Below are positions 24,051 through 57,356 of a stretch of 64,000 bases of DNA, piece by piece. The notes beneath the pieces were generated by a model, which worked only from the letters and a program-made list of their open reading frames with translations, searched no databases and had not been told where the DNA came from. Each line of letters starts with the position of its first letter. The first letter of the stretch is position 1. Source of the stretch: Candidatus Kapaibacterium sp. (GTDB lineage: Bacteria > Bacteroidota > Ignavibacteria > Kapaibacteriales > UBA2268); NCBI GenBank assembly GCA_963664875.1, contig OY761611.1, forward strand, positions 2,400,001-2,464,000, written 5' to 3'. The position numbers and the translations under genes were made by a program.

Positions 24051-24665
24051 CTACTCTACCTCTTCCAATAGCTCAGAATTATACATTTCGCTTGGGGCTA
24101 TCATCAGAGAGTCGTATGGGATATTTCTGCCATATCGTTCTTTCATGATTTGCTGAACTGTAGGCGAATTCAAATCAAAATCTCTCAGTTTGCGGAGTTT
24201 GCCTATTTCTAATCCGGTTGCTTCTTTGTATATCTTCCAAACATATTCTGAGCAGTACATTTTCTCTTCGTCCATGCTAAACATTATATCATAGGGTTTG
24301 CCGAGGTGGCTTTCTGCAATTTTCTGCATCTTAGCAATAACTTCCGGAGTCAGCACTTCACTTGCATTTTTCAGCCTCATAACCTGGAAGTAAGGCCGAG
24401 CTCCCCTATTCAAATAAGAATTTATTTCTGTAATTTGCACGGGAGAAATGGCTTCGTAAACACGCAACTTACCATCTTTTTCGAGCACGATACCAACATG
24501 ACTGAATTTAGAATTAGTCGCTATGTGTATAGCGTCGCTCTGGTCAGAGGGGAAAGTCTGAAAGATTAAATCTCCGTTCTGTAGTTTTTTGGTATCTATA
24601 GTGCTCGCACATGCAGATAGAATCAGTGCAATAGTAGCAATTAGAGCATATAATTTAGTTCGCAT
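24051..24665 (-). CDS. YiiX/YebB-like permuted papain-fold (NlpC/P60) lipoprotein
   Basis: Lipobox LSAC; GDLIFQ, FSHVG (His), KPYD, MYCSEYVWK (Cys). Confidence 0.9.
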   Translation of the reverse strand: MRTKLYALIATIALILSACASTIDTKKLQNGDLIFQTFPSDQSDAIHIATNSKFSHVGIVLEKDGKLRVYEAISPVQITEINSYLNRGARPYFQVMRLKNASEVLTPEVIAKMQKIAESHLGKPYDIMFSMDEEKMYCSEYVWKIYKEATGLEIGKLRKLRDFDLNSPTVQQIMKERYGRNIPYDSLMIAPSEMYNSELLEEVE

Positions 24666-24677
24666 GATAGTACCTCT

Positions 24678-25289
24678 TTATTTTACTTCTACTAATAGTT
24701 CAGAATTAAACATATCGCCGGGTGAAATCATCTTTTCATTGTAAGGAATGTTGTTGCCATACCTTTCTTTTAAGATACGTTGTAATGTTTCTGAAGTTAA
24801 GTCAAAATCTTTAAGCGGTCTAAGTTTACCTATTTCTAATCCGGTAGCTTTTTTATAGATTTTCCAGAGATATTCCGAGCAAAACATCTTCGAGTCTGAC
24901 CAATTGAAATACATATCGTAGCCCTTGCCGAGTTCCTTTTTGGCGAGAGATTCCATTTTCTTCAGCACATTATCAGTAATTACTTTATCAGCATTTTTGA
25001 GTCTTTTGACTACATAATCACTACCCTTACCACGGTTGATATAAGTATCAATATCCACAATCTGCACAGGCGAAACTGCTTCATATACAAACAACTCCCC
25101 ATCCTTTTTAAATACCATCCCTACGTGACTATACTTCGATTTAGTTGCCAGCTGAATAGGAACGCTCTGCCTCGACGTTGAAGTTTGGAAAATCAAATCA
25201 CCGCTTTGCAGCTTATCGAGACTAATGTTGTTATTGCTGCAAGCTGTGATGATAAAGAGAGAGATTAAGATATATAAAATATGTTTCAT
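24678..25289 (-). CDS. YiiX/YebB-like permuted papain-fold lipoprotein (tandem paralogue)
   Basis: Lipobox ITAC; GDLIFQ, YSHVG, MFCSEYLWK. Confidence 0.9.
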   Translation of the reverse strand: MKHILYILISLFIITACSNNNISLDKLQSGDLIFQTSTSRQSVPIQLATKSKYSHVGMVFKKDGELFVYEAVSPVQIVDIDTYINRGKGSDYVVKRLKNADKVITDNVLKKMESLAKKELGKGYDMYFNWSDSKMFCSEYLWKIYKKATGLEIGKLRPLKDFDLTSETLQRILKERYGNNIPYNEKMISPGDMFNSELLVEVK

Positions 25290-25337: not shown

Positions 25338-25432
25338 CACCTCGTTCCGCTCGGTAAAAAAACGGGGGATCAGGTGGCGTGTTGTCCACATAGGGCGCTG
25401 CCCTATGCTACTGATTTGAGGCTTTCAGCCTC
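25338..25432. repeat. REPIN-like right half abutting the transposase stop codon
   Basis: cacctcgttccgctcggtaaaaaaacggggg...catagggcgctgccctatgctactgatttgaggctttcagcct; repeated at about 25984-26076 and 26214-26306. Confidence 0.9.
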
Positions 25433-25884
25433 TAATCCCATAAATATTTAGGATTATAATCAACATTCAATTTTTTGAGTATTGCCAATAGTTCTTGTTT
25501 GAAATCGAATCTTTTATGATGTTCATTCTGATGGATGATATAGGAACTGATTTCTTCTATTTGTGAAACATGTACCGAAAAAGCACCATATCCGTCTTGC
25601 CAATAAAATGTACTATATTTTTGATTTTTGTCTTTAATCCATTTTGAAGATGATTTTTTAATTTCTTCAACCAACTTTGCAATTGTTAAATTTTTTGATA
25701 ACATACACAGGATATGTACATGATCTCTTTCTCCCCCGATTTTGACCGGATTACATTTTAAATTTTTACAAATTCCACCAATATAATCATGTAATTCATT
25801 TTCAATAGCTACATCAATTAGTTTTTCTCGGTGTTTTGTACTGAAAACGATATGCAGATAGACTTCAGTAAGTGATTGACTCAT
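25432..25884 (-). CDS. tnpA: Y1 HUH transposase (IS200/IS605 superfamily), REP-associated (RAYT-like)
   Basis: YLHIVFSTKHR, DHVH HUH motif, IKKSSSKWI, FYWQDGYGAFSV, catalytic YIxxQ. Start MSQSL at 25884; no tnpB; flanked by REP palindromes. Confidence 0.9.
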   Translation of the reverse strand: MSQSLTEVYLHIVFSTKHREKLIDVAIENELHDYIGGICKNLKCNPVKIGGERDHVHILCMLSKNLTIAKLVEEIKKSSSKWIKDKNQKYSTFYWQDGYGAFSVHVSQIEEISSYIIHQNEHHKRFDFKQELLAILKKLNVDYNPKYLWD

Positions 25885-25911
25885 ATTTGTATTTCCTATA
25901 ATTAGCAATAT

Positions 25912-26076
25912 CAGCCTGAAAGGCTGTAATCAGTAGCACAGGGTGAAGCCCTGTAAGGGCGTAATCCATAAATTAAATTACTACACCTCGCTCTGCTCGG
26001 TAAGAAACGGGGGTGTGGCTGTGTCTCTACCACATAGGGCGTTGCCCTACGCTACTGATTTGAGGCTTTCAGCCTC
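25912..26076. repeat. REPIN-like unit 1 (internally shortened)
   Basis: cagcctgaaaggctg..atcagtagcacagggtgaagccctgt paired with the inverted arm atagggcgttgccctacgctactgatttgaggctttcagcct. Confidence 0.9.
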
Positions 26077-26107
26077 AATATAATATCTAATACAATTTTT
26101 CTATCTT

Positions 26108-26306
26108 CAGCCTGAAAGGCTGACATCAGTAGCACAGGGTGAAACCCTGTGACAGAGATTTTCACCCGATTTATATAAGCCCTGTAAGGGCGTAATCCTA
26201 ATCTCAAATCACGACATCTCGCTCCGCTTGGTAAAAATGGGTTTGTGGTGGTGTCCCTTTTACATAGGGCGCTGCCCTATGCTACTGATTTGAGGCTTTC
26301 AGCCTC
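26108..26306. repeat. REPIN-like unit 2 (full length)
   Basis: Same arms as unit 1 plus an extra internal segment ending in agccctgtaagggc. Confidence 0.9.
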
Positions 26307-26353
26307 TACTTATCTGTTTTTAGGCTAAAGTTTTTGCATTCATTAGAGTAATC

Positions 26354-26779
26354 CTATATCTTTACTTTTTCAATATTTTCTACACGAAGCCAGTCGTCCA
26401 TGTTGCCGAAATCGGATTTGTCAAAGGAGAAAGGTTCTATTTCCCGGAAATTCTCAATGCTAATCAGGCAAAGGTATCTTTTTCCGGCGAAACGTTTCAT
26501 TAGCTTAGCGTCTAATTGGAGCATGGGTTGCAACTTTTCAACAATTTCTATTGACTCTTCCGGCTCGAGTTTGTTTGTAAATATGGTGTCACTCACTTGA
26601 GACACAGCTTTGACTATTCCATCTCCGTTGTTTTCAGTGAAGTAAAGAGTGTCGCCAATATCAACTCTCTCGTATGGCATTTTTCTGCCCATTGCACCTC
26701 GGATAATCATTGTTTTCTTCCCGGCAATTAGATTATCCAGTTCTTTTGCTTTTTTGTCTAAATAAACTATATGTTCCAT
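26354..26779 (-). CDS. ASCH/PUA-like domain protein
   Basis: LIAGKKTMIIR (GxKTxxxR) and IGDTLYF motifs. Confidence 0.6.
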   Translation of the reverse strand: MEHIVYLDKKAKELDNLIAGKKTMIIRGAMGRKMPYERVDIGDTLYFTENNGDGIVKAVSQVSDTIFTNKLEPEESIEIVEKLQPMLQLDAKLMKRFAGKRYLCLISIENFREIEPFSFDKSDFGNMDDWLRVENIEKVKI

Positions 26780-27372
26780 GACATCTCCAATATTTCTTTC
26801 ACTTTAAAATACGCTATAATATAGTAAAAGTTTTCAGTTAATTTATATATTATAGACATAAAATATAAGTATGATTAAGTAAAAGTTCTTTCAAGGTTTT
26901 GGTTTTCTGCATAAGGGTCAGGATGTGAGGAATGTTTAGCTTGGTTTAGGCAATTTTTTACGTTCTCTCAGAGTTAATCAGTTCGATATTAAATGATAAA
27001 AGAATATTGAACAAAAAATATCCTTGAAAAGAAAATTATTAACCTATTTTTTAGCAAATATCGCTCATTATTCGTATATTGTTGAGTGTATTATAGGATC
27101 CGTGTATTATCGCTAAATATGTGTTAGTATTGGATTTTACTTTGATTTTATAGGGACTGTCTAAGAAGTAGAAACAGCATTATAACAAGTTAGATAGTGG
27201 TAGTAACCACCGTATTTCGATTCTTTGCTCAAGCTCAGTATATAATTTTGCTTATTTAGAGTCAATCTCGAAGAGAAGAGCAAACAAGATTACTTTTGCA
27301 CACTTCATAACTTTCATGACTTCCCAAAAATGGAAATACTCTTTATATATAAATAAATTCCGAAGGTAAGCT

Positions 27373-29295
27373 ATGTATGACTTCAAGTTTAAACCTTTCG
27401 AGGAAATGACGCCCGAGGACTACGCAAAAGTTGGTTTTAAATCCGGTTTGGAGGTGCACCAGCAGCTTCTTACTGAAAAGAAACTATTTTGCCGTTGCCC
27501 TGCCGGTCATTATAACAATCATAAATACCATGCTGAGATTTTGCGACACATGCGGCCGACTCTTTCAGAGCTCGGTGAATATGACGGCACTGCTTTGATG
27601 GAATTCAAAACCAAAAAGGAAATACTTTATCGCATCAATTACGATACTGTTTGTACTTATGAAATGGATGATACTCCTCCGTTTCAGATTAACGATCAGG
27701 CTCTTGATATTGCTATTGAAATAGGTATGATTTATGACGCTACGATTGTGAATGAACTTCATATAGCAAGAAAGCAATACCTCGATGGATCTATTCCTAC
27801 CGGATTCCAAAGGACAGCTATCACCTGCGTTGGTGGTTCTATTCCATTTAAAGACAGAAAAATCAACCTCATCCAGATGTCTATCGAAGAAGATTCCTGC
27901 CGCGAATTTAGCGATCAGGGACACACTCGTATTTATCTTACTGATAGATTAGGCATGCCACTCATCGAAACTGTAACAGAACCTGAAATGAAAACTCCTC
28001 AGGAAGTTGCTGAAGTAAATGAAATCATCAGACGCATAGCACGCTCTACCGGTCATGTTCGCACAGGTATCGGTGCTGGTCGCCAAGATGTTAACGTTTC
28101 TGTTACAGGTGGAACCCGTATCGAAATCAAAGGTGTTCATAAAATCAAAAATATACCAAGATTGACATATAACGAAGCTATGAGGCAGTGGAATCTCCTT
28201 AGACTTAGAGAAGAGCTTGCCAATCGTGGAGTAACTGAAGAGACTTTCGAAGCAAACTACAAAGATGTAACTAAACATTTACGTAAAACCCGATTCCAAA
28301 TAATCAAAGATGCTATCGATGCCGGGAAAATAGTAAATTGTGTCAGACTAAAGGGCTTTAAAGACTTACTCAAGTGGCAAACTCAGACCGATACTGTCTT
28401 CTCTAAAGAGTTATCTGACAGAGTAAGGGTAATAGCCTGTCTTTCAGAATTACCGAATATAATCCATTCGGACAGTCCATCTGAAAAGCTTTCTTCTTAT
28501 GAATGGAGCTCTTTGAAAAAATCAGTTGGTGCTACCGATAAAGATACAATCGTACTTGTTTGGGGTAGCGAAGAAGATGCGGAAACCGGAGCTAAAGAAA
28601 TTATCATCAGAGCCAAAGAAGCAACTATCGGCATTCCGTCTGAAACAAGACAGGCTCTTATTGACGGAACTACCGGTTTTGAGCGTATTCTCCCCGGCCC
28701 TGAAAGGATGTATCCTGATACGGATCTTCCTCCTAAAACTATTTCAGCTGAAAGATTGCAAAGAATAAAAGACTCTCTGACTGAGCCATATTGGGAAAGA
28801 GAAGCCAAATATTATAGCTTAGGTGTGCCGGAAGATTCTATCAAGTCCTTAGCCATTTCGCCTTTTTCTGCAACTTTCGATAAGATAGTAGCGATGGGAG
28901 TAGATGCAAAACTTGCTGCAGTTGCTTTGACTCAGTTTGTCAAACGTCTAAACAAAAAAGGTTACGAAACAGAATACCTTACTGAGGAGCATTTCCTAAA
29001 TATTTTTGAATTGTTCAAAAGCGGAAAATTAGCTAAAGATGGTATTTATGATGCAATCAAAAGAGCGATAGTTTTAGGAGAAGTATCATCTCATAATTTG
29101 CCTGAAAAATGCTCCGAATCTGAAATGAAAGGCAGAATCAACGAAGCAAAAGAATTGATGAATAAAATACGAATCAAATATCCTGACAAAAAAGGTAAAA
29201 TATTTATGGGCTCTATCATGAAAAAGCTTCGTGGCAGAGTTGATGGAGTTGAAATACTCAAACTTGTTAATGAATTTAAGCCGGAGGAAGTATAA
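27373..29295 (+). CDS. gatE: Glu-tRNA(Gln) amidotransferase subunit GatE (archaeal type)
   Basis: GLEVHQQL..KKLFCRCP, RPTLSELGEYD, DGSIPTGFQRTA, DRLGMPLIE, GIGAGRQDVNVS; GatE-specific AspRS-like insertion around aa 290-420; RMYPDTDLPP; 640 aa. Confidence 0.93.
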   Translation: MYDFKFKPFEEMTPEDYAKVGFKSGLEVHQQLLTEKKLFCRCPAGHYNNHKYHAEILRHMRPTLSELGEYDGTALMEFKTKKEILYRINYDTVCTYEMDDTPPFQINDQALDIAIEIGMIYDATIVNELHIARKQYLDGSIPTGFQRTAITCVGGSIPFKDRKINLIQMSIEEDSCREFSDQGHTRIYLTDRLGMPLIETVTEPEMKTPQEVAEVNEIIRRIARSTGHVRTGIGAGRQDVNVSVTGGTRIEIKGVHKIKNIPRLTYNEAMRQWNLLRLREELANRGVTEETFEANYKDVTKHLRKTRFQIIKDAIDAGKIVNCVRLKGFKDLLKWQTQTDTVFSKELSDRVRVIACLSELPNIIHSDSPSEKLSSYEWSSLKKSVGATDKDTIVLVWGSEEDAETGAKEIIIRAKEATIGIPSETRQALIDGTTGFERILPGPERMYPDTDLPPKTISAERLQRIKDSLTEPYWEREAKYYSLGVPEDSIKSLAISPFSATFDKIVAMGVDAKLAAVALTQFVKRLNKKGYETEYLTEEHFLNIFELFKSGKLAKDGIYDAIKRAIVLGEVSSHNLPEKCSESEMKGRINEAKELMNKIRIKYPDKKGKIFMGSIMKKLRGRVDGVEILKLVNEFKPEEV

Positions 29296-30686
29296 TGTCT
29301 ATGAATGAAGATTATAAAGGCTATCGCGGTGCCGGATTAGAGTTATTGATGAAATACGATGCTCTGATTTGGAGTGATGTCAGATTAAAAACTTCCGACG
29401 AAAGAACTCATATCGGTCTTATCTTGCCAAGAGCTGAGCAGGCTGACGAGTTCCATATTGTTTTGAAACTTCGTACCGGCTATAATATCGGTATCCATGT
29501 TGATAATATACTCAACATCGAAGTAGTTGGCAGAAAAGTAGCTAATTACAAAATTCCTGAGCAGGAATTCCCGTATTCACCTAAAAAGCCAAGAGTCAAA
29601 CTTTTTGGTACCGGCGGTACGATTGCCAGCCGTCTTGATTACAGAACCGGTGCCGTTATCCCTGCATTCTCTCCGGGAGAACTTTACGGTTCTGTGCCTG
29701 AGCTTGCAGATTACTGTAACTTGGAAACCGAAAAACTTTATGGCGTATTCTCTGAAAATATGGGACCTGACCAGTGGATAGGCACTGCTCAGGCTATTGC
29801 AAAAGAAATTGAGCAAGGTGTAAAAGGTATTGTTATCGGTCATGGTACTGACACAATGCACCATACAGCAGCAGCTCTTACATTTATGCTCCAAAACACA
29901 CCTGTTCCGATAGTAATGGTAGGCTCTCAGCGTTCATCTGACAGACCTTCTTCAGATGCGGCTCTTAACCTGATTCACAGTGTAAAAACTGCTGCGGAAT
30001 CTGATATAGCAGAAGTAATGGTTTGTATGTTTGGGCCTACTTCAGATGAATACGGTTTGCTTCATAGAGGTACCAGAGTTAGAAAAATGCACTCTTCCTA
30101 CCGCTCTACTTTCAGAACCATCGGAGATATTCCGCTTGCGATGGTTAACAAAGAGGCTATCAGCCCATTGAGAGAGGATTATTCAAGAAGAAGAAGAGAT
30201 AAAGAATTCAAACTTATTCCTACTTTTGAAAACAAAGTTACTATTGTTTATTACTATCCGAATATGCAGCCGGACATCATCGATGCTTTGATTGATAACG
30301 GCTACAAAGGCATAGTAATAGCAGGCACCGGTCTTGGACACGTTAATAAACCGCTTTACCCGGCGCTAAAACGTGCTCAGGAAAAAGGAGTTCAGGTTTA
30401 CATGACGGTACAGACTCTTTGGGGCTATGTGCAGATGTATGTTTACGAAACAGGCAGGGAGATGATGGAGCTGGGAGTAATTCCTTTAGCAAATATGCTT
30501 CCTGAAGTTGCGTATATCAAACTTGGCTGGGCTTTAGGTCAAACTCAGGATGCAGAAGAAGTCAAAAAACTAATGCTTACTCCTGTCAATGGAGAGATTA
30601 CAGAAAGAGAGCCATCGAATGGCTATCTCGTATATCAGGGTGGCATTCCTGAAGTGGAAGAGTTTATAGCGAAGTTTAGGAAATAA
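29295..30686 (+). CDS. gatD: Glu-tRNA(Gln) amidotransferase subunit GatD (archaeal type)
   Basis: N-terminal GatD domain (IVLKLRTGYNIGI) plus asparaginase-like core TGGTIASRLDYRTGAV, HGTDTM, GSQRSSDRPSSDA, RGTRVRKMHSS; TAATG overlap with gatE. Confidence 0.93.
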   Translation: MSMNEDYKGYRGAGLELLMKYDALIWSDVRLKTSDERTHIGLILPRAEQADEFHIVLKLRTGYNIGIHVDNILNIEVVGRKVANYKIPEQEFPYSPKKPRVKLFGTGGTIASRLDYRTGAVIPAFSPGELYGSVPELADYCNLETEKLYGVFSENMGPDQWIGTAQAIAKEIEQGVKGIVIGHGTDTMHHTAAALTFMLQNTPVPIVMVGSQRSSDRPSSDAALNLIHSVKTAAESDIAEVMVCMFGPTSDEYGLLHRGTRVRKMHSSYRSTFRTIGDIPLAMVNKEAISPLREDYSRRRRDKEFKLIPTFENKVTIVYYYPNMQPDIIDALIDNGYKGIVIAGTGLGHVNKPLYPALKRAQEKGVQVYMTVQTLWGYVQMYVYETGREMMELGVIPLANMLPEVAYIKLGWALGQTQDAEEVKKLMLTPVNGEITEREPSNGYLVYQGGIPEVEEFIAKFRK

Positions 30687-30692
30687 TTTATA

Positions 30693-30731
30693 TTTCTCAA
30701 CCGTGGGGTTTACTTCCCCATGGTTGAGAAA
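30693..30731 (+). terminator. Hairpin after gatD
   Basis: tttctcaaccgtgggg...ccccatggttgagaaa. Confidence 0.7.
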
Positions 30732-30906
30732 TTGTTAGGCATTGTTTTCTTTAGATTATTCGAACATCTCACAGCAACATCTCTTACCCTGTTGTCTTGA
30801 CTACTGCTCTTATGTCTATCCGAAATCTTTTTTTATATTTAAAAACCTTCAAAGCAAAAAAAAAAAGTAAATGCGCTTAGTTACATAGAACCAAAAATAC
30901 ATTTAC

Positions 30907-32381
30907 CCCAAAAATGTCATTAGCGATAATCTCTAATGACTGTCATTAGAAAAAAGAAGATATAACATGTTGATAAATAGTGTTTTAGCAGATATTAAAA
31001 AAAGTCTATATTAGGAAAACAGATGTAAGAAAATCTTACGAAAAATATGGATGTAAAAATTGCTTTTACCGACAAAGAAATTACACCTTGGGCAGGTATT
31101 TCTTTGATGCAAAATATGCTAAAAAAAATGTCTTTTGATCAAATATTAAAAGATTTGGCGTTACCATCACAGGGTTCGAATAGAGGTTACAAACCAGAAC
31201 AACTAATACAACACTTTTTACTGGGTATTTGGTGCGGTGCAAGTTGCTTCGAACATTTAGAAGTAACAAGACATGACAAAGTCATCCAAAATTTGTTTGG
31301 ATGGTCAAAAATGGCTGGAAGCAAAGCATTCCACAGATATTTTAATAAGTTTTCTCAGGCAACAAATCAACAGGTTTTTGATGAGCTTTACACTTGGTTC
31401 TTCAATAATTTTCAGTTTGACAACTACACAATTGACTTTGATTCTACGGTGATAACTCGCTATGGAAATCAGCAGGGTGCTGCAAAAGGTTATAACCCTC
31501 GTAAACCGGGAAGAAATTCACATCACCCTTTGCTTGCATTTGTCTCAGATTGCCGAATGATAGCCAATTGCTGGCTTCGGCCCGGCAATACCGGTGCATC
31601 AAGCAATTTTCTGAGTTTTTTGGAAGATACACTTTATAAGCTTGGTAATAAAAAAGCAGGTTTAATCCGTGCCGACAGCGGATTTTACTCAGACGAAATA
31701 ATGAAATATCTCGAAAGTACCAAACATAATTATATAATAGCAGCAAAGTTTTACAGACCTTTGAAAGTAAAAATTGCCAAACATACAAAATGGTGGCCTA
31801 TAAGTAAAGGTTTAGAAATAGGCGAAACAAGCTACCAATCAGACAACTGGGATGAACCCCGCCGAGTTATAATGATAAGACAGTATGTTCCACAACGTCC
31901 TAAAGCAGTCGGAAAACAATTGAGCTTTTTCGAAGGAGACATGCAATACAAAGATTATCGCTACTCTTGTTTTGTAACAAATTTGGATTTGCCTGCACAA
32001 ATAATATATGATATGTATCGTGGGAGAGCCGATTGCGAAAATAGAATCAAGGAGATAAAGTATGATTTTGGAGCAGAAAATTTCAATATGCGCAATTTTT
32101 GGGGTACAGAAGCAGCACTAAATTTTGTTATGATTGCCTATAATCTGATGAGTCTGTTTAGGCAAGCAGTTTTAAAAACTAAAAAGCAAAATTTTCTAAG
32201 CACACTCAGATATAAGACTTTTGCAATAGGCGGATATTTAATTAAAGATGGAAATTCTAAAATTTTGAAGTTATCTTTAGCAATGCAAAGGAGGCAATGG
32301 TTTAAGGGACTTTGGAGTTCGTCAACCTATATAAAATTGCCTCATGTGCTTTAATATGATATTTCTAATGACAAATCTGGG
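30907..32381 (+). mobile_element. Complete IS1380-family insertion sequence (1475 bp)
   Basis: IRL CCCAAAAATGTCATTAG; IRR reverse complement CCCAGATTTGTCATTAG; 5-bp target duplication TTTAC at 30902-30906 and 32382-32386. Confidence 0.9.
31047..32354 (+). CDS. IS1380-family DDE transposase
   Basis: IDFDST, KGYNPRKPG, LRPGN, RADSGF, YRGRADCENRIKE. Confidence 0.95.
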   Translation: MDVKIAFTDKEITPWAGISLMQNMLKKMSFDQILKDLALPSQGSNRGYKPEQLIQHFLLGIWCGASCFEHLEVTRHDKVIQNLFGWSKMAGSKAFHRYFNKFSQATNQQVFDELYTWFFNNFQFDNYTIDFDSTVITRYGNQQGAAKGYNPRKPGRNSHHPLLAFVSDCRMIANCWLRPGNTGASSNFLSFLEDTLYKLGNKKAGLIRADSGFYSDEIMKYLESTKHNYIIAAKFYRPLKVKIAKHTKWWPISKGLEIGETSYQSDNWDEPRRVIMIRQYVPQRPKAVGKQLSFFEGDMQYKDYRYSCFVTNLDLPAQIIYDMYRGRADCENRIKEIKYDFGAENFNMRNFWGTEAALNFVMIAYNLMSLFRQAVLKTKKQNFLSTLRYKTFAIGGYLIKDGNSKILKLSLAMQRRQWFKGLWSSSTYIKLPHVL

Positions 32382-36971: not shown

Positions 36972-39740
36972 ATGAAACGATTATTACTTCTCATTATCAC
37001 AGCCATTTTAACTTATTCTTTAAATGCCGGAGAGCTGCGGCCGTGTATTAGTCACTATTCTAGCTATTTAATGGAAGATTTAGACATGATTGCCGGAGAA
37101 GGTGAGCAGTTATATGTAGCCGGAACTGCAGGTATCTTTTACTTAGATAAAATAGACGGGAATTGGCGAAACATTATTCTATTCAAGGAAAATAAATACA
37201 ATTTTAAATTCTTTAGAAGTACTGATTATACGATATACTTTACAAATAACAATACATTATTTCGGATAGATAAATCTACAAAAAGTATAGAAGCCGTCTT
37301 CTCAACAGTTACTCCAATAAAAAGAATGTTTTTCGAAGAAGACAGAATTATATTGATGGAAGAAAGACTTTTTAGTTTAGTTGATTTATCTTTCAATCTG
37401 CTCCAAACAATTGATTTGAAAGAATTTTTGCAAAACAAAGGTACATTTTATCAAGGGAATCCTTTCCTGTCATATTCAAAAACAGAAGGATTTCTAATCA
37501 GCCATCAAATATTTTTGGATATGGAAGACTATTATTTTGTACATAAAAGCGATGATAATGGCAAAACATGGGGTACCCACCCATTCTACAAAGAAACAGG
37601 TAAAGCTTTTAGCTTTGCTACCAATCTTAGCGAGAATATTATGATGTATTCTTTGGTTGGTGGAACTGACACAGTTTGGTATGACGATAAAAATAACAAA
37701 GAAATTAATACTGTAGATATTAAGCTTAGCAATACTGGTGGCTCAAAGACAGCTATTAAATTTTCTGAAGCAGGCAACTTTTTAGCTTGTTTAGACAATA
37801 ACTATTCGAGTGATGTACATTTTAGTTCTGACAGAGGACAAAGTTGGGAGACGCTAGCTATTGAGGCAAATGATATAACTATATCTCAATCCGGAATCTT
37901 ATATACTCATTACTTTGTAGGTCCAATACAAGCCTATAACAGTAGTAGTAAAACTTGGGGAAGTGTGTCTAATCCTCCATTGACTCGCACAGAGTTTGCA
38001 TCTAACTGTAATACAGTATTTGAAGTAAATGATAAACTATGGACTTCATTGTCATACAATAAAGATGAACAAATTTTAAAATCAGAAGATAAAGGACAAA
38101 GCTGGGTGTATTATACTGTGCCTTCTGAATACGGAATACTAAATAGCTTTTTTATCGATAATGATGAAAATATATATTTAACAAGCTCTTTAGGCATAAT
38201 AAAAGCTGATATATATAATAATTTCGTAGTGCTCGATTCAAATGTTGATAGAGATATTGTTGGTCAGTCCTATATCATTGATAAAGTAATGGACTATTTA
38301 GTTTTAGGTAACAAGGTTGCAGATAAAAACCATAGAATTTATAAATACAATTTAAATAGTAATACCTTAGAAGATGTTGGAATAAACTATGCGACTATAA
38401 ATCAATACCAGGATAAATATCTCATTTCAAATCCGGATAATTTAGGGCAATTACAAGTCTATAATAGTAATTTTGTTTTAGAAAAAACTTATCAGACAGA
38501 GACAGAAGCTGAAATCATCAAGTCTGTTATGGATTCAAAACAAGAGATTTATGCCAGTACTTATTCAGGGTTATTCAAAGCTTCAAAATCATCGACTGAA
38601 TTAAAAGCTTTTGGTGGAATAAGTGACTATGTAGTTTCCATGTTTTTAAGCGAAAAAGATAGTCTTTATGTTTTGACGTACAATGGCAAAGATCTTTATA
38701 CTTTGAATAATAGCAGAGACAATGTGGTTTCCTGCTATTCTAATTATGATTGGTATTTTGGTTTACTAAAATATGTAGGCAAAAACCAGTTTGTTCTTAC
38801 TCATAGTCATGCTCCTATGGGTGCTATAATGAAATGTGGCTATTTATCAAATCAAGAGACTTTAGATTTAAATTTAGAGGCTTCAAATTTTTCACATTAT
38901 GTTATGAAAGATTCCGGAGCTGACTTGAATATATCAAGCAATTCAGATAATTATATTGTTCATCTTAAACAAAGGTACGGCGTACTGGATACTACTTTTG
39001 TGAGTACTGAACATAACTGTAAATACCATATAAATTCTTACGAACCAAATCAATGTTTAACTTTTGAAGTTTCTCTTACAAAAGATGGATATGAACCTTC
39101 AACTACTAAGTATATCAACTTCTATTATCACGACAAGTACTCAAATGCAAATATTGTTACTACTTTTCAGAATAAATATAATCAGTTTTATCAAGGACAA
39201 ACTGCGAATATAAATTTTGCAATACTAGATGCAAGTAATAACAGATTGGCGGGTACTATATACATGAGTAATAACATAAGCAATAATCCAAAAGAACAAG
39301 TTGTCACTCAAGGTCAGGAAGCTGAGTATCAATTCGACATTCCGGAAGACACAAAAGAAGGTATTTATCGAATTTATTACAGTGGTAATTCAAGCTCTTT
39401 TGGTGATATTGAAGAAAGATATACTTTTTTCGTGGTAAATAATCTAAAATGGGAAAGCATTTCTGAACCGAACTCAATCATCAAAAACGCAAAAGTTTTC
39501 CCTAATCCTACTGCAAACTCTGCGACAGTTGACTTTGAAATGGAAGAAGCAGGCGACTTAACTTGCGAGATATATGACCTATCCGGCAAGCGAATAATGT
39601 CTATTCCTACTGAGGGTTATTATGCTGCTGGACAGGCTAATTTGTCATTTGATGTTTCTATGCTTCAAAGCGGCCAGTATATGATATTCCTAACAGCAAA
39701 GGACAAAGTTACTGCAAGCAAGCTGATAATAGAGAGATAG
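36972..39740 (+). CDS. T9SS type-A CTD secreted beta-propeller (BNR/Asp-box) protein, paralogue 1
   Basis: Signal peptide; SDDNGKTW, SSDRGQSW and SEDKGQSW Asp-boxes; CTD VFPNP...IYDLSGK...LQSGQYMI...KLIIER. Confidence 0.85.
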   Translation: MKRLLLLIITAILTYSLNAGELRPCISHYSSYLMEDLDMIAGEGEQLYVAGTAGIFYLDKIDGNWRNIILFKENKYNFKFFRSTDYTIYFTNNNTLFRIDKSTKSIEAVFSTVTPIKRMFFEEDRIILMEERLFSLVDLSFNLLQTIDLKEFLQNKGTFYQGNPFLSYSKTEGFLISHQIFLDMEDYYFVHKSDDNGKTWGTHPFYKETGKAFSFATNLSENIMMYSLVGGTDTVWYDDKNNKEINTVDIKLSNTGGSKTAIKFSEAGNFLACLDNNYSSDVHFSSDRGQSWETLAIEANDITISQSGILYTHYFVGPIQAYNSSSKTWGSVSNPPLTRTEFASNCNTVFEVNDKLWTSLSYNKDEQILKSEDKGQSWVYYTVPSEYGILNSFFIDNDENIYLTSSLGIIKADIYNNFVVLDSNVDRDIVGQSYIIDKVMDYLVLGNKVADKNHRIYKYNLNSNTLEDVGINYATINQYQDKYLISNPDNLGQLQVYNSNFVLEKTYQTETEAEIIKSVMDSKQEIYASTYSGLFKASKSSTELKAFGGISDYVVSMFLSEKDSLYVLTYNGKDLYTLNNSRDNVVSCYSNYDWYFGLLKYVGKNQFVLTHSHAPMGAIMKCGYLSNQETLDLNLEASNFSHYVMKDSGADLNISSNSDNYIVHLKQRYGVLDTTFVSTEHNCKYHINSYEPNQCLTFEVSLTKDGYEPSTTKYINFYYHDKYSNANIVTTFQNKYNQFYQGQTANINFAILDASNNRLAGTIYMSNNISNNPKEQVVTQGQEAEYQFDIPEDTKEGIYRIYYSGNSSSFGDIEERYTFFVVNNLKWESISEPNSIIKNAKVFPNPTANSATVDFEMEEAGDLTCEIYDLSGKRIMSIPTEGYYAAGQANLSFDVSMLQSGQYMIFLTAKDKVTASKLIIER

Positions 39741-39833: not shown

Positions 39834-40082
39834 TCAGAATAAATCGTTATCCTAACAGCCGTAAGTATTTATTTTAAAATCGGATTGTCACTTCCTAAGT
39901 ACAGAAAATTAGATTTTTACTCTGACTCTGCCTAATAAACCTTGCATTTTGCGAAACTACAGAATCATTCTAATTTTGTTTACTATTAAAAAATATCAAA
40001 TAAATATTATATATTGTAACTAACATAACATACAATATGTCTATGTTCAATTGACATTAATATTAAATAAGCCGAGTTGACT

Positions 40083-42845
40083 ATGGAAAAATTATTTCTT
40101 CTCATTTTCACAATCCTCTTAAGTTATTCTATAAATGCGGGAGAGCTGCGTCCATGCATGAATCACTATTCGAATAGTTATCAGGAAGAATTAGATATGA
40201 TTGCCGGTGAAGGGGATCAATTATACGTAGCCGGAAGTGCAGGTATCTATTGTTTAGAAAATATTTACGTGAATTGGCAAAAAATCATGCTTTTAAAAGA
40301 AAACAAACGTAATTTCAGTTTTTTTAGAAGTCCAGACTATACGATTTACTTTACAAATAACAATACTTTATTTCGGATTGATAAATCTACAAGGAGAGTT
40401 GAAGTTGTGTTTGCAACAGCTACTCCAATCAAAAAAATGTTCTTCGAGGAAGACAGAATTATCTTAATGGAAGAAAGACAATTCAATATAGTAGATCTAT
40501 CTTTTAATTTACTCCAGAGAATTGATTTGAAAGAATTTTTGCAAAACAAAAGTACATTTTATCAGGGAATTCCTTTCCTTTCATATTCAAGAACGGAAGG
40601 TTTTCTAATCAGTCATCAAGTACAGTTGGGTATGGAAGATTATTATTATGTACATAATAGCAAGGATAATGGTAAAACATGGGTTACTCAGCCACTTTAT
40701 AACGGAACAAGTAAAGAAATTAGTTTCGCTACTAATCTTAGCGAAAATATTATTATGTACATTTTGGGTGACGGTTCTGACACAGTTTGGTATGACCTCA
40801 AAAACAACAGAGAAATAAATACTGTAGATATTAAGCTTAGCAATACTGGTGACTCAAAGAAAGGTATTAAATTTTCTGAGGTAGGCAATTTGTTAGCTTG
40901 TTTGGATAACAACGATATAAGCAATGTACATTTTAGTTCCGACAGAGGACAAACTTGGAAGAAGATAAATATAGCAACTGAACAATCTATCTCTCAATCC
41001 GGCATTTTATATTTACGTTTTGAAAAGAGGATGATAGATGCATATTTTTATAACAATAAAACAAGTCTGAGTATTCCTTTCCCATTTGCTACAAGCGAAG
41101 AATTTACATCTGATTTTAATACTGTCTTTGAAGTCAATAATAGGCTATGGACTTCATTGCGAGATAATAATGCCGGTATTTTAAAATCAGAAGACAGGGG
41201 TCTAAATTGGTTCAATTTTACTGTGCCCTATGACTACGGAAGACCCAATAGCTTTTTTGTAGATACAAATGAAAACATCTATTATACAAGTTCTGTTGGG
41301 TTAGTCACTGCAGATGCCTATGGAAATTTCCAAGCGCTTGATTCGTTTTTTACTAGAGATATTGTAAAGATGACTAATATAATTGGCAAAATAGATGACT
41401 ATTTAGTGTTAAGTAAAAAAGTTGCAGATAATGACTATAAAATATACAAATATTATTTAAATAGCAATTTCTTAGAGGATGTCGGAATCAACTATGCGAC
41501 TATCAATCTATATCAGGATAAATGTCTCATATCAAATCCAGATAATTTAGGTCAATTGCAAGTCTATAATAAAGATTTTGTCTTAGAAAAAACTTATCAG
41601 ACAGATACAGATACCGAAATCATCAAGGCTGTTATGGATTCCAATCAAGAAATTTACGTAAGTACTAATTTAGGTTTGTTGAAAGCTTCAAAATCATCAA
41701 ATGAATTAAAAGTTTTTGGTGGAATAAGTGATTCTGTAGTTTCAATGTTTTTGACCGAAAAAGATAGTCTTTATGTTTTAACATATTCCGGTAAAGATCT
41801 ATATACTTTGAATGATAGTAGAGATAATTTAGTTCCCTGCTATTCCAATTATGATTGGGATTCTGAACTAATACAATATGTCGGAAAAAACCAGTTTGTT
41901 CTAACTCGTAAGCATGATCCTTGGTATGCAACTATGAAATGTGGCTATTTATCAGAGCAAGAGATTTTAGAAATAAATTTAGATGCTTCAAATTCTTCAC
42001 ATTATGTTATGAAAGATTCAGGAGCTGATTTGCATATATCCAGCAATTCAGATAATTATACTGTTCATCTGAAACAAAAGTATGGCTTACTGGATACAAC
42101 TTTTGTGAGTACTGAAGAAAAATGCACTTACCATATAAATTCTTGCGAACCAAATCAAGTTCTAACTTTTGAAGTTTCTCTTACAAAAGATGGATATGAA
42201 CCTTCAATTACTGAGTTTATCAACTTTTATTATCACGACAAGTATTTAAATGCAAATATTGTTCCTACTTTTCAGAATAAGTATAATCAGTTTCATCAAG
42301 GACAAACTGCGAAAATAAATTTTGCAATACTCGATACAGGCTCTAACAGATTGGCGGGTACTATATACATGAGTAATAACATAAGCAATAATCCGAAAGA
42401 ACAAGTTGTCACTCAAGGTCAGGAAGCTGAGTATCAATTCGACATTCCGGAAGACACAAAAAAAGGTATTTATCGAGTATATTACAGTGGGAAATCAAGT
42501 TCTTTTGGCAATATTGAAGAAAGATATACCTATTTTGTTGTAAATCATATACAATGGGAAAGCATTTCTGAACCAAACTCAATCATCAAAAATGCAAAAG
42601 TTTTCCCTAATCCTACTGCAAACTCAGCGGCAGTTGATTTTCAAATGGAAGAAGCGGGCGACTTAACATGCGAGATATATGACCTCTCCGGCAAACTTAT
42701 AATGTCTATCCCTACTGAGGGATACTACGCTGCGGGAAAGGCTAATTTGTCATTTGATGTTTCTATGCTACAAAGCGGCCAGTATATGATATTCCTAACA
42801 GCGAAGGACAAAGTTACTGCAAGCAAGCTGATAATAGAGAGATAG
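40083..42845 (+). CDS. T9SS CTD secreted beta-propeller protein, paralogue 2
   Basis: Colinear with paralogue 1 over its full length; same CTD. Confidence 0.85.
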   Translation: MEKLFLLIFTILLSYSINAGELRPCMNHYSNSYQEELDMIAGEGDQLYVAGSAGIYCLENIYVNWQKIMLLKENKRNFSFFRSPDYTIYFTNNNTLFRIDKSTRRVEVVFATATPIKKMFFEEDRIILMEERQFNIVDLSFNLLQRIDLKEFLQNKSTFYQGIPFLSYSRTEGFLISHQVQLGMEDYYYVHNSKDNGKTWVTQPLYNGTSKEISFATNLSENIIMYILGDGSDTVWYDLKNNREINTVDIKLSNTGDSKKGIKFSEVGNLLACLDNNDISNVHFSSDRGQTWKKINIATEQSISQSGILYLRFEKRMIDAYFYNNKTSLSIPFPFATSEEFTSDFNTVFEVNNRLWTSLRDNNAGILKSEDRGLNWFNFTVPYDYGRPNSFFVDTNENIYYTSSVGLVTADAYGNFQALDSFFTRDIVKMTNIIGKIDDYLVLSKKVADNDYKIYKYYLNSNFLEDVGINYATINLYQDKCLISNPDNLGQLQVYNKDFVLEKTYQTDTDTEIIKAVMDSNQEIYVSTNLGLLKASKSSNELKVFGGISDSVVSMFLTEKDSLYVLTYSGKDLYTLNDSRDNLVPCYSNYDWDSELIQYVGKNQFVLTRKHDPWYATMKCGYLSEQEILEINLDASNSSHYVMKDSGADLHISSNSDNYTVHLKQKYGLLDTTFVSTEEKCTYHINSCEPNQVLTFEVSLTKDGYEPSITEFINFYYHDKYLNANIVPTFQNKYNQFHQGQTAKINFAILDTGSNRLAGTIYMSNNISNNPKEQVVTQGQEAEYQFDIPEDTKKGIYRVYYSGKSSSFGNIEERYTYFVVNHIQWESISEPNSIIKNAKVFPNPTANSAAVDFQMEEAGDLTCEIYDLSGKLIMSIPTEGYYAAGKANLSFDVSMLQSGQYMIFLTAKDKVTASKLIIER

Positions 42846-43122
42846 GAAATTCAGAAAAGCTGATAAAAAACCTTTCCAAAATGAATATATATCTCTTATA
42901 AGTTAAATAAAAACTTTAGGGGGTATTAGTTTTCTTGTACCTAATAGCAGTAAGTGTCTATTTAAATAGTGGATTGTAAATATTTTAAACATTACACCCT
43001 AATATGGTACTACTTAGAATGTTCAATGACAATTTGCACTAAATTAGATTGCATGAAACTTAATATAAATCTATTCGTTTTGTAATACACTAACTATGTT
43101 TAAGAATTGCGAGAGGTATTGT

Positions 43123-45918
43123 ATGCGGAGCCTTAATACTGCATTTATTATGTTATTATTGTTTTCAGTATCTTTAATATCGAAAGACATAATGAGATCA
43201 CTACTCATTCACGATGATCCTACACATATAGGAAGCCATATTTGTGGTGGAAGCGGTGATAACTTGTATATGGCTATAGACTCTTTGCTTTATCAAAAAA
43301 GCGGCATTGATGGTGAATGGTCGGAGATATATCAATTACCAAACGATCCATATCATGCCTATGCTATTACTTATAATGATTACCGACTCAAATTTTACAA
43401 AGATGACTCTTTTAACGTTTATTTTGCTTTAGGCTCAATATTCTATAAAATCGATAGTCAAACCCAAGTTGTTGATCCGGTGTATTCTACAAATTCTAAG
43501 ATTAAATCTGCCATTTTTGAAGACGATAAAATCATATTAATGGAAGAAGATAAATTCCACATTTTGACTTCTGATTTTGAGCAAATTGAAGTAATCGATA
43601 TGTCTTCCCTCTCAGATTTGCATTTTATTGACTTCTCAGATATTACTAACAGAATAGCATATATTAGGGGAGAGGGATATTGCTATAATGTAATCAAACC
43701 TGAAACTACACAAGTTTTGAATTCAGCGTTTGTTTCCACTCAAAGTATTGATAGTTTCCCCGAATTTGGTAAATTTTACGATACAGAAGCCAAACTCCAC
43801 AACGTTGCTAATCTTACGAATAATCTAATTTTGGTGTCTGAAGGAGATGACTTATTCGATATGGCAAGTTATATCTACGATCTAAAAACAAAATCCAGGA
43901 TTTTCATACCTTCCAATCCCGATTTCAAAGAATATAGGTTCCAATTTGAGGAAAGTGGAGATATATTAACCCTTTCTTTTAATGACATCAACGAATTTAC
44001 ACAATATAGTACAGATAGAGGTAAAACTTGGACTGAAGTTAGTTCATACACTTTGTACGAATTATGCGTTACAGAAAGTGGCCAAATTTATGGCTTTTAT
44101 CCTGCAACCGGTCTAATTGCTCTCGATAACGCAAGTAATAAATGGAATCAAGTAAATCTACCTGGATCTTATTTTTCTTATATAAAAGAAAACACTAAGG
44201 ACTATTTTGAGCAGAACAACGCCATCAAAGCTTTATGGAAAAACAATTCCATAATTACCAGTACCAATAATGGCAAGACTTGGACTCAAGAAGCATTGCC
44301 GGTAGAAACTCAAAATGCGGATGCCCTATTTGTAGATAGTCAAGATAATTATATCTATTTATGCGAAGTAGGTTTATACAAAAAAGAAGCAAATGCTACT
44401 TGGGAACTCCTTTCTTCTGAATTGCCTTATAGCTCAATTTCTGATTGCAAAATCATCGATGTTAATGACATGCGTATCCTAATAGCATCAAGCCAAAATG
44501 ATACAGACTATCAGCTCTTTGAGTTTAGTTTAACGGAAAACAAGTTTACTGACTTAAGTGTTAATTTCAGAGACTTACAAAAATCTGCTGATGGTAATTT
44601 TTATTATGTGCCGAAGAACGATATGCAAACTATCATTAAATCAACTAATGATTTTACAATGGTGGATTCCAAAAATCTGAACTATGCCTATGACATTGAT
44701 AAGATATTACTTGATAAAATAGGAAGTATATATGTTGCGACACAAAAAGGTTTATTCAAATCACTGGATTGGAATTCTGATTTTGAAAAGCTTGGAAATA
44801 TAAACAATGAAGTTGAAAATATGCATTTGAATAGTAATGATACTATGTTTGTAAATTTCAAAGACTCAGAATATTTCTATTTTGTAGAACCATATAAATT
44901 TCAAATTGAAACAATACCTGATATAACAGGCTGGCAAAACAAAAGTTTAGCTTTTATTTCAGCAAATAATACTGCAATAATTGAAAAGAATCGGAACGGG
45001 ACGCTCTCTTATGTTAAATTATTGCAGGATATGGATATTCATTTGAATTACTCTGTAACTGATTCTTGTTTTGAATATGATTCGAAGCCACAGCTTCTAA
45101 TCTATCCAAATGCTAAGGACTACGACATTAAGATTATTGATTATTCTTCTCTTGCTGACACTACTCTTATAGCTACAGGTGATACTGCTGTTTACAACAT
45201 TGACTTCTTGCCACATCAAAACATCAGTATGAGGATTGTTGCTTCAGTACAAGGTAAAAATCCATTCTATAGTGATATAATAAATATCAAAACTTATGTG
45301 GGACGAAGCGACACTCATATTATAGCTGAATCCCAGGTAGGCTCTAATGATTATAAAAATACTTTTGATACAGGTAAATCAGGCAAATACAAGCTTTCTA
45401 TTGTAGATGGAAATGGGAATCCTGTCGATGGGTTGGTTAACATACATAATTCTTTCAATAACGAGACCCAGAATTTCAATGTCACATCTTCGAAAGTAAC
45501 AAAATATGAATTCGAGATTCCTTCGAACTCTGAGTATGGAATTTATAAGCTGAGCTACTCAGGAAAGGCAGATGATTTAGGAGAAGTTCCGGAATCATAT
45601 TTGTATTTCATAATACACGGTTGGATTTGGGATTCAGTCGAAGAACTAAACTCAATCATCAAAAACGCAAAAGTTTTCCCTAATCCTACCGCAAACTCAG
45701 CTACAGTTGATTTTAAAATGGAAGAAGCAGGCGACTTAACTTGCGAGATATATGACCTATCCGGCAAGCGAATAATGTCTATTCCTACTGAGGGTTATTA
45801 TGCTGCTGGACAGGCTAATTTGTCATTTGATGTTTCTATGCTACAAAGCGGCCAGTATATGATATTTCTAAAAGCGAAGGACAAAGTTACTGCAAGCAAG
45901 CTGATAATAGAGAGATAG
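43123..45918 (+). CDS. T9SS CTD secreted beta-propeller protein, paralogue 3 (divergent body)
   Basis: STDRGKTW and STNNGKTW Asp-boxes; CTD nearly identical to paralogue 1; GAGAGG RBS before ATG 43123. Confidence 0.85.
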   Translation: MRSLNTAFIMLLLFSVSLISKDIMRSLLIHDDPTHIGSHICGGSGDNLYMAIDSLLYQKSGIDGEWSEIYQLPNDPYHAYAITYNDYRLKFYKDDSFNVYFALGSIFYKIDSQTQVVDPVYSTNSKIKSAIFEDDKIILMEEDKFHILTSDFEQIEVIDMSSLSDLHFIDFSDITNRIAYIRGEGYCYNVIKPETTQVLNSAFVSTQSIDSFPEFGKFYDTEAKLHNVANLTNNLILVSEGDDLFDMASYIYDLKTKSRIFIPSNPDFKEYRFQFEESGDILTLSFNDINEFTQYSTDRGKTWTEVSSYTLYELCVTESGQIYGFYPATGLIALDNASNKWNQVNLPGSYFSYIKENTKDYFEQNNAIKALWKNNSIITSTNNGKTWTQEALPVETQNADALFVDSQDNYIYLCEVGLYKKEANATWELLSSELPYSSISDCKIIDVNDMRILIASSQNDTDYQLFEFSLTENKFTDLSVNFRDLQKSADGNFYYVPKNDMQTIIKSTNDFTMVDSKNLNYAYDIDKILLDKIGSIYVATQKGLFKSLDWNSDFEKLGNINNEVENMHLNSNDTMFVNFKDSEYFYFVEPYKFQIETIPDITGWQNKSLAFISANNTAIIEKNRNGTLSYVKLLQDMDIHLNYSVTDSCFEYDSKPQLLIYPNAKDYDIKIIDYSSLADTTLIATGDTAVYNIDFLPHQNISMRIVASVQGKNPFYSDIINIKTYVGRSDTHIIAESQVGSNDYKNTFDTGKSGKYKLSIVDGNGNPVDGLVNIHNSFNNETQNFNVTSSKVTKYEFEIPSNSEYGIYKLSYSGKADDLGEVPESYLYFIIHGWIWDSVEELNSIIKNAKVFPNPTANSATVDFKMEEAGDLTCEIYDLSGKRIMSIPTEGYYAAGQANLSFDVSMLQSGQYMIFLKAKDKVTASKLIIER

Positions 45919-57290: not shown

Positions 57291-57356
57291 ACTCTAAACT
57301 GAGCAAATATCTAATCATTCTTTTCATTATGTCTAACATTTAAAAAGTTGAGTCTT

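Follow-up and report, generated by a model that had tools for sequence, protein, structure and literature searches.

The archaeal amidotransferase GatDE, with solved chains from Methanothermobacter thermautotrophicus (2D6F) and Pyrococcus abyssi (1ZQ1), is built from two subunits, GatD with an N-terminal domain followed by an asparaginase domain, and GatE with a cradle, an AspRS-like insertion, and a helical and YqeY-like tail. In archaea the enzyme is glutamine-specific, and the AspRS-like insertion of GatE is the docking site for the glutamyl-tRNA synthetase of the non-discriminating kind (ND-GluRS). Bacterial GatCAB resembles it in that both enzymes transamidate Glu-tRNA(Gln) in a tRNA-dependent manner and GatB is homologous to GatE in cradle and tail, but GatE has the insertion domain and an asparaginase-type partner, whereas the partner of GatB is amidase-type. 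Reviews up to 2022, in the passages that deal with its distribution, describe GatDE as confined to archaea (PMC2811023, PMC8007984, PMC9499178), and it has been inferred for the last ancestor common to all life (LUCA) even while held to be archaea-only (PMC2811023, PMC9499178, PMC8007984). Here we analyse a gatE-gatD pair in a bacterium, found in a 64,000-nucleotide stretch (the window) of the genome of Candidatus Kapaibacterium sp. (contig OY761611.1, positions 2,400,001 to 2,464,000), which on sequence grounds encodes a genuine, functional-looking GatDE.

The pair has the same two subunits, catalytic motifs and domain order as archaeal GatDE, but its GatE falls in a separate bacterial clade with about 32–38% identity to most archaeal GatE, carries clade-fixed changes (some of them in the insertion domain), is joined with gatD in a gatE-gatD operon and coexists with GlnRS and a bacterial-type GluRS. 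From the GatDE that NCBI and JGI have annotated in metagenome-assembled genomes of Kapabacteria, Ignavibacteria, Melioribacteraceae, Aminicenantes, Phycisphaerae, Myxococcota and Deltaproteobacteria it differs in nothing essential: among the best matches listed the GatE proteins are 53–74% identical to that of the window, the gatE-gatD order and tight spacing are the same, and GlnRS and/or GatB stand alongside wherever checked, while the window copy is flanked by insertion sequences (IS) and belongs to a genus with eroding GatCAB. The locus is one unremarkable representative of a large clade of bacterial GatDE to which NCBI and JGI already apply the GatE label, as the preliminary description of the window had suspected. 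A likeness exists also to Thermus, Deinococcus and Bdellovibrio, which are described as keeping GatCAB beside GlnRS and AsnRS in the account of them in PMC4206432; an amidotransferase is retained there too despite direct synthetases, but the enzyme is GatCAB, serving at least in some cases for tRNA-dependent asparagine, whereas here it is GatDE and AsnB is present.

A monophyletic, strongly constrained clade of bacterial GatDE in hundreds of species contradicts the claim of an archaea-only distribution, which underlies review arguments on LUCA and on the archaeal lack of GlnRS as these are set out in PMC2811023, PMC8007984 and PMC9499178. Searches of the accessible literature returned no paper on bacterial GatDE. 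The question posed is why an indirect glutamine route should be kept beside a direct one, and the host genome is a good test case: it is complete, its two very different tRNA-Gln isoacceptors bear A1-U72 and U1-A72, and it combines a single GluRS and a single GlnRS with GatDE and a GatCAB in decay. Among bacterial carriers of GatDE the window is unexceptional; the points of interest are the rule that GatDE never stands alone and the erosion of GatCAB. The features of the locus are as follows.

gatE, 27373..29295, forward strand: 640 aa, kinase/amidotransferase subunit of GatDE, with cradle, AspRS-like insertion and YqeY-like tail
coupling signal, 29283..29297, forward strand: GGAGG at 29283-29287, gatE stop TAA at 29293-29295, gatD start ATG at 29295-29297
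gatD, 29295..30686, forward strand: 463 aa, asparaginase-type, ammonia-releasing subunit of GatDE, with GatD N-terminal domain
stem-loop, 30692..30732, forward strand: 17-bp stem and 7-nt loop, beginning 6 nt past the gatD stop

The protein encoded by gatE scores 551.8 bits on NCBIfam NF003107 (cut-off 456) and 462.9 bits on TIGR00134 (cut-off 319.55), while GatB models give at most 155.7 bits, all below cut-off (cut-offs at least 314.8; that of the best model 338). It aligns over its full length with the archaeal chains 1ZQ1_C (E 9.5e-100) and 2D6F_C, contains the Pfam domains GatB_N, GAD and GatB_Yqey, and is 184 residues longer than the 456-aa GatB of the same genome. The AspRS-like insertion, claimed in the preliminary description, is borne out by residues ~290-415, which are alignable with both archaeal chains; the GAD match within it (residues 311-403) reaches 22.6 bits (E 1.3e-4), marginally below the gathering score of 23.4, and a weak AspRS match covers residues 252-409. 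GatB of a GatCAB enzyme is ruled out as the identity of this protein, since the GatB models stay below cut-off and the protein groups with GatE when the tree is rooted on GatB. The protein encoded by gatD scores 522.2 bits on TIGR02153 (cut-off 324) and 519.5 on NF003217 (cut-off 310), has the Pfam domains GatD_N (PF18195, 52.1 bits), Asparaginase and Asparaginase_C, and aligns in full with 1ZQ1_A (E 5.3e-124) and 2D6F_A. Its asparaginase-type motifs GTGGTIAS, HGTDTM and RKMH, which would hold the catalytic residues, line up with those of both archaeal chains. The 463-aa protein also passes a type I asparaginase subfamily model (391.8 bits; cut-off 260.5), but a stand-alone type I asparaginase is ruled out because the GatD equivalogs score higher, GatD_N is present and gatE is coupled upstream. 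The pair had been called GatE and GatD, as opposed to GatB and AnsA, from the letters alone, and the curated models and the tree agree with that call.

Direct reading of the sequence upholds the overlap of the two genes, in which the gatE stop and the gatD start share one base (TAATG) with GGAGG 7 nt upstream of the gatD ATG. A rough count over 74 bacterial loci gives a 4-nt overlap (17 loci) and a 1-nt overlap (12 loci) as the commonest spacings between gatE and gatD. The hairpin reported behind gatD is likewise real as a predicted fold, with a free energy of −28.7 kcal/mol (z −6.68; none of 200 shuffles folds as well); it has no T-run and is absent from the consensus terminator scan, and may possibly serve as a terminator or stabiliser. 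When GatE columns at least 90% conserved in archaea were compared (n = 85), 66 proved to be kept in at least 90% of the bacterial rows, and the window GatE agrees with the archaeal consensus at 72; the bacterial clade has fixed substitutions at 19 of the 85, several of them inside the insertion domain. The catalytic core of GatE is thus largely kept across the bacterial clade, which supports retained chemistry.

Distribution, descent and residence in the genome

We compared the host genome (G000) with 60 relatives, 61 genomes in all, of which 37 belong to the host family (f1) and 24 to ten sister families. GatE over cut-off occurs in 30 of these genomes, all in the host family (30/37 against 0/24), and GatD over cut-off in 29. 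An even phylum sample of 401 genomes has GatE in 16, including four more families of the same class, and a scan of one genome per species gave, among 600 candidate stretches, relatives in at least 591 bacterial genome records. The best 80 of these are 53–74% identical to the window GatE, with labels that include Ignavibacteria, Melioribacteraceae, Kapabacteria, Aminicenantes, Phycisphaerae, Planctomycetales, Myxococcota, Rhodothermaceae and Neomarinimicrobiota. The order of gatE before gatD had been remarked on as the reverse of the usual archaeal one, but it is the rule of the bacterial clade: by tblastn on 105 fetched bacterial loci, gatD lies downstream of gatE in 96 (co-oriented and no more than 450 nt away in 93, farther off in 3) and upstream in none, and six of the nine loci in which no downstream gatD was found have less than 1 kb of room.

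A tree of 201 GatE rows divides with a support of 100 into two sides, one of 125 rows that holds all 92 rows from bacterial genomes and one of 76 rows. On the smaller side four of ten looked-up clusters were named, all archaeal (Heimdall-, Odin-, Woesearchaeota and Thermoprotei), and on the larger side the two named clusters were both Deltaproteobacteria. In a rooted tree of 70 rows with nine bacterial GatB as outgroup (IQ-TREE LG+C20, quick search), GatB lies outside all GatE with a support of 100, bacterial GatE form one clade (96*) and archaeal GatE another (74, weak), which places the bacterial GatE, if with low support, outside the archaeal sequences that were sampled. Since bacterial GatE form their own clade apart from the archaea, recent import from archaea does not account for the pair; it may date from the bacterial-archaeal split, or may have arrived early from Asgard-like archaea.

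The host genome is a complete single contig of 3.83 Mb with a transfer-messenger RNA (tmRNA) and 64 tRNA genes, and its assignment to the FCB (Fibrobacteres, Chlorobi and Bacteroidetes) type, made beforehand from the sequence, is in keeping with the tmRNA, with proteins bearing type IX secretion sorting domains and with nearest labelled relatives that are Kapabacteria, Ignavibacteria and 'FCB group'. The gatED pair is single-copy. An IS1380-family element (30907-32376, with its transposase open reading frame (ORF) at 31047-32354) lies about 220 nt downstream of gatD and is present in the genome in triplicate (identities of 100%, 100% and 99.7%; read depth about 3x the surroundings). Upstream of gatE lies an IS200/IS605-like transposase gene on the minus strand (25432-25908), within a single-copy piece of 732 nt (25405-26136), and between it and gatE a minus-strand ORF of 141 aa (26354-26779) that has no match in Pfam or NCBIfam and stands on the same assembled contig as the pair. 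None of 106 fetched loci has a tRNA gene adjoining gatED.

With IS elements on both sides and a neighbourhood unlike that of its congeners, the pair could be suspected of being a recent archaeal import, a contaminant, an assembly chimera or a decaying relic. This is already contradicted and must count as extremely improbable. The chimera that the preliminary description had named as a possible refutation is not what the reads give: an identical contig of 4,658 nt spans 26279-30936 with no differences in assemblies of runs from two studies, its depth is that of the adjoining single-copy chromosomal DNA, and the assemblies are broken solely at IS copies. The congeners have the pair as well: its proteins are 90–96% identical to those of the genus's other four species, a closer match than that of GluRS (86–87%). 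Composition, judged host-like by eye in that description, holds up on measurement: set against 1,071 long ORFs, G+C content at third codon positions (GC3) departs from the mean by +0.48 standard deviations (sd) for gatE and +1.23 sd for gatD, neither beyond 1.3 sd. The closest relatives are bacterial, archaeal GatE being 32–38% identical and one 43%. Against a relic stand the ratios of nonsynonymous to synonymous substitution (dN/dS) towards four congeners, 0.037–0.056 for gatE and 0.028–0.036 for gatD; together with the family-wide presence of GatE, such purifying selection agrees with the suggestion of an old acquisition. Synteny was dropped as a sign of mobility, for the flanks of gatED differ even among congeners, which makes synteny uninformative and the genomes simply fluid.

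Synthetases, GatCAB and tRNA-Gln beside GatDE

The archaeal setting for GatDE (no GlnRS, archaeal ND-GluRS, A1-U72) is a trait of the surroundings and not of the protein family, and the host departs from it: GlnRS is present, the one GluRS is of bacterial type, and A1-U72 occurs only in the UUG isoacceptor of tRNA-Gln. The host GlnRS scores 789 bits and matches the solved structures of GlnRS from E. coli and P. aeruginosa at 742–745 bits over its full length, by which an atypical GlnRS is ruled out. With a normal GlnRS alongside, GatDE is not the sole route in the host, and the proposal that the lineage relies on an archaeal route falls, given this typical GlnRS together with AsnRS, GatB and a GatA-like amidase. 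Because AsnRS and AsnB are both present, a tRNA-dependent asparagine route is not needed.

Judged from its genes, GatCAB is eroding in the genus. No GatC was found at E<=1 in the host genome, for a short protein and with no positive control from the same order; the GatA-like amidase scores 376 bits, under the GatA cut-off of 481; and GatB (2015728-2017083 of the host contig; L252-L255) is only 48–53% identical among congeners, against 86–87% for GluRS. The nonsynonymous divergence (dN) of GatB within the genus, 0.41–0.46, is about eight times that of gatE, and its open frame is shortened to 376 aa in one congener (G003), which points to relaxed or changed selection on GatCAB.

Each of the 61 genomes has exactly one GluRS, and AsnRS is over cut-off in 58 of them. 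In the ten sister families GlnRS occurs in 2 of 24 genomes and canonical GatB in 21; since those families have GatB and one GluRS but no GlnRS, the sister GluRS must be non-discriminating. The host family falls into the following classes.

GatCAB only: 5 genomes
GatDE and canonical GatB, no GlnRS: 3 genomes
GatDE, GlnRS and a divergent GatB (near-canonical in G023): 10 genomes
GatDE and GlnRS, no GatB: 17 genomes
GlnRS only: 1 genome
none of GatDE, GlnRS and GatB found: 1 genome

On a GluRS tree the family's basal lineages have GatCAB only; a clade of 34 genomes is where GatDE appears, and a subclade of 28 (97*) is where GlnRS does. Outside the host family, GlnRS accompanies GatDE in 15 of 15 genomes of four other families, 14 of which also have GatB, and in four of five GatDE-bearing genomes of other phyla, the fifth having GatB. 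All these are raw co-occurrence counts; the tree shows only three changes of GatDE and four of GlnRS. The residue equivalent to Arg358 of GluRS was dropped as a marker of discrimination, being an invariant Arg in 61 of 61 genomes; caution about a marker of this type is voiced in the part of PMC3927822 that treats it.

Bacterial GatCAB is reported to require U1-A72 and to reject an extra D-loop base in the descriptions given in PMC2811023 and PMC2943598, and archaeal GatDE to recognise A1-U72 in those of PMC2943598 and PMC9499178. In the host tRNA-Gln(UUG), A1-U72 and G73 go with a D-loop that exceeds that of relatives by one base, whereas the host tRNA-Gln(CUG) (2865100-2865173 of the contig) has U1-A72 and a different body. 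The point made beforehand about the 1-72 pair holds for the first isoacceptor and fails in the second, and it loses its force as a sign of GatDE, since A1-U72 occurs also in a relative without GatDE or GatB. The UUG isoacceptor was read in 35 genomes: none of the 12 with canonical GatB has A1, against 11 of the 23 without it, and by GatDE the figures are 10 of 26 carriers and 1 of 9 genomes lacking it. Enlarged D-loops occur in 11 genomes, none of them with canonical GatB. An earlier count of A1 (10/22 with GatDE, 0/8 lacking it) had been considered a sign of co-evolution with GatDE and was dropped after the case of G044 (family f9; L244), discussed below. The A1-U72 pair of that GatDE-free genome indicates that the switch follows the loss of canonical GatCAB and not the presence of GatDE, and A1-U72 with the enlarged D-loop is best read as a release from the rules of GatCAB once that enzyme is gone or failing; both changes are compatible with use by GatDE but are no evidence for it. 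In GatDE-bearing bacteria U1-A72 is the first pair of most of the tRNA-Gln genes that were read. A BLAST search with the tRNA-Gln(UUG) gene gave no match in 15 GatDE-bearing genomes of other families and is uninformative, and a signature pattern for this tRNA matched in 4 of 20 outside genomes and in two controls (G000 and G044).

CUG-type tRNA-Gln is found in 29 of 30 genomes of the 61-genome set that have GatDE and in 5 of 31 that lack it. It is present in 3 of 3 genomes of sister family f5, which have no GatDE, and is native to part of the order. As an observation apart, the CUG-type tRNA-Gln is 92% identical between f5 (L074, L076, L077) and the host, and so is either unusually conserved or has moved between families; for the UUG-type in f5, BLAST gave no match in two genomes and a match of 20 nt in the third.

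Proposed role and its rivals

The pair is intact, strongly constrained and inherited family-wide, and it coexists with GlnRS. As to its role, we favour, with a probability of roughly 0.6, a working GatDE that, next to GlnRS, amidates the Glu-tRNA(Gln) supplied by a GluRS which is still relaxed, as the old GatCAB erodes; the substrate, the relaxed GluRS and a division of labour with GlnRS are what we infer. The ancestral state of the order was GluRS with GatCAB and no GlnRS. The single GluRS, inherited from GatCAB-dependent ancestors, would still glutamylate at least one tRNA-Gln isoacceptor, so that an amidotransferase would still be needed, and GatDE would now fill that place, with GlnRS working in parallel and GatCAB being lost. 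By a mechanism borrowed from the archaeal enzyme, GatD would free ammonia from glutamine or asparagine, and GatE would phosphorylate the glutamate on Glu-tRNA(Gln) and then amidate it to give Gln-tRNA(Gln).

Several observations weigh against this reading. Another route is present in 50 of 50 GatDE-bearing genomes, GlnRS in 46 and GatB in the other four; these four (G031, G035, G036 and G452), which have GatDE and no GlnRS, all keep a GatB over the curated cut-off (477–605 bits), so GatDE alone may not suffice, and the keeping of GatB where GlnRS is absent implies that the loss of GatCAB tracks GlnRS and not GatDE. The host GatB itself is still over two GatB cut-offs, whereby GatCAB may still work. 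The invariance of the Arg358-equivalent even in GatCAB-only genomes makes that residue uninformative on whether the host GluRS is non-discriminating. The AspRS-like insertion, at which the archaeal enzyme docks ND-GluRS, has clade-fixed changes, among them one that removes a Glu with 99% conservation in archaea. G044, with GlnRS only and neither GatDE nor GatB, has tRNA-Gln(UUG) with A1-U72, which is an independent switch of the first pair in a bacterium relying on GlnRS alone. Independent-pair tests (GatDE/GlnRS, GatDE/CUG-tRNA, GlnRS/GatB and GatB/A1) were non-significant, with two to five pairs each. Finally, an enlarged D-loop is named, in the relevant part of PMC2943598, as the feature by which archaeal GatDE rejects tRNA-Glu.

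The main rival is that GatDE is an accessory enzyme for one isoacceptor (e.g. CUG) or for glutamine scarcity, with GlnRS or GatCAB bearing the bulk load. The rule that GatDE never stands alone speaks for it, as do the co-occurrence of CUG-type tRNA-Gln with GatDE (29/30 against 5/31) and G027, a genome without GatDE in which no CUG-type tRNA-Gln was found either. Of two independent pairs, GatDE and the CUG-type tRNA moved the same way in 1.9 on average, but this is far from significance (p ~0.5), the three f5 genomes have the tRNA without GatDE, and the archaeal enzyme, as portrayed in the sections of PMC8007984 that concern it, does not read the anticodon; we regard an accessory role as rather unlikely. 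GatDE may instead have changed function, its substrate now being a different aminoacyl-tRNA (Asp-tRNA(Asn), for instance) or something other than a tRNA, and would on that account have been kept beside complete direct routes. It is always redundant on paper, and the 19 substituted columns of the 85 could reflect such a change, but the catalytic cradle is shared with archaea at 66 columns and the tail domain is kept, the presence of AsnRS and AsnB leaves asparagine with no need of such a route, and in 96 of 105 loci gatE and gatD remain paired, as is expected of a two-subunit amidotransferase. A change of function thus seems quite improbable.

More tentatively, and as a possibility that we would sooner doubt than accept, the GatDE of bacteria may form an old line lying outside the archaeal GatE sampled, and its role may have shifted from sole maker of Gln-tRNA(Gln) to an auxiliary or quality-control amidotransferase that never acts by itself, clearing Glu-tRNA(Gln) made by a bacterial GluRS that never came to discriminate fully. 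An old bacterial lineage, as opposed to a late archaeal gift, would, if true, fit the published inference of GatDE in LUCA, and an auxiliary role would explain strong constraint beside GlnRS in many phyla.

Other features of the window and genome

Upstream of the pair the window holds two tandem paralogues of YiiX-family permuted papain-like enzymes (24051-24665 and 24678-25289), both over the curated cut-off. In three tandem ORFs of 922–940 aa (36972-39740, 40077-42845 and 43096-45918) the one recognised feature is a type IX secretion sorting domain at the C-terminus, the remaining sequence being without a Pfam match at E<=1e-5, and 57348-61478 encodes a methyl-accepting chemotaxis protein of 1,376 aa with a dCache sensor and an unusually long HAMP-type array (at least five HAMP_2 stretches). 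Elsewhere on the contig, beyond the window, tRNA-Asp(GUC) and tRNA-Thr(UGU) genes form tandem arrays, five of each, at positions 900254-900756 and 2186489-2187025.

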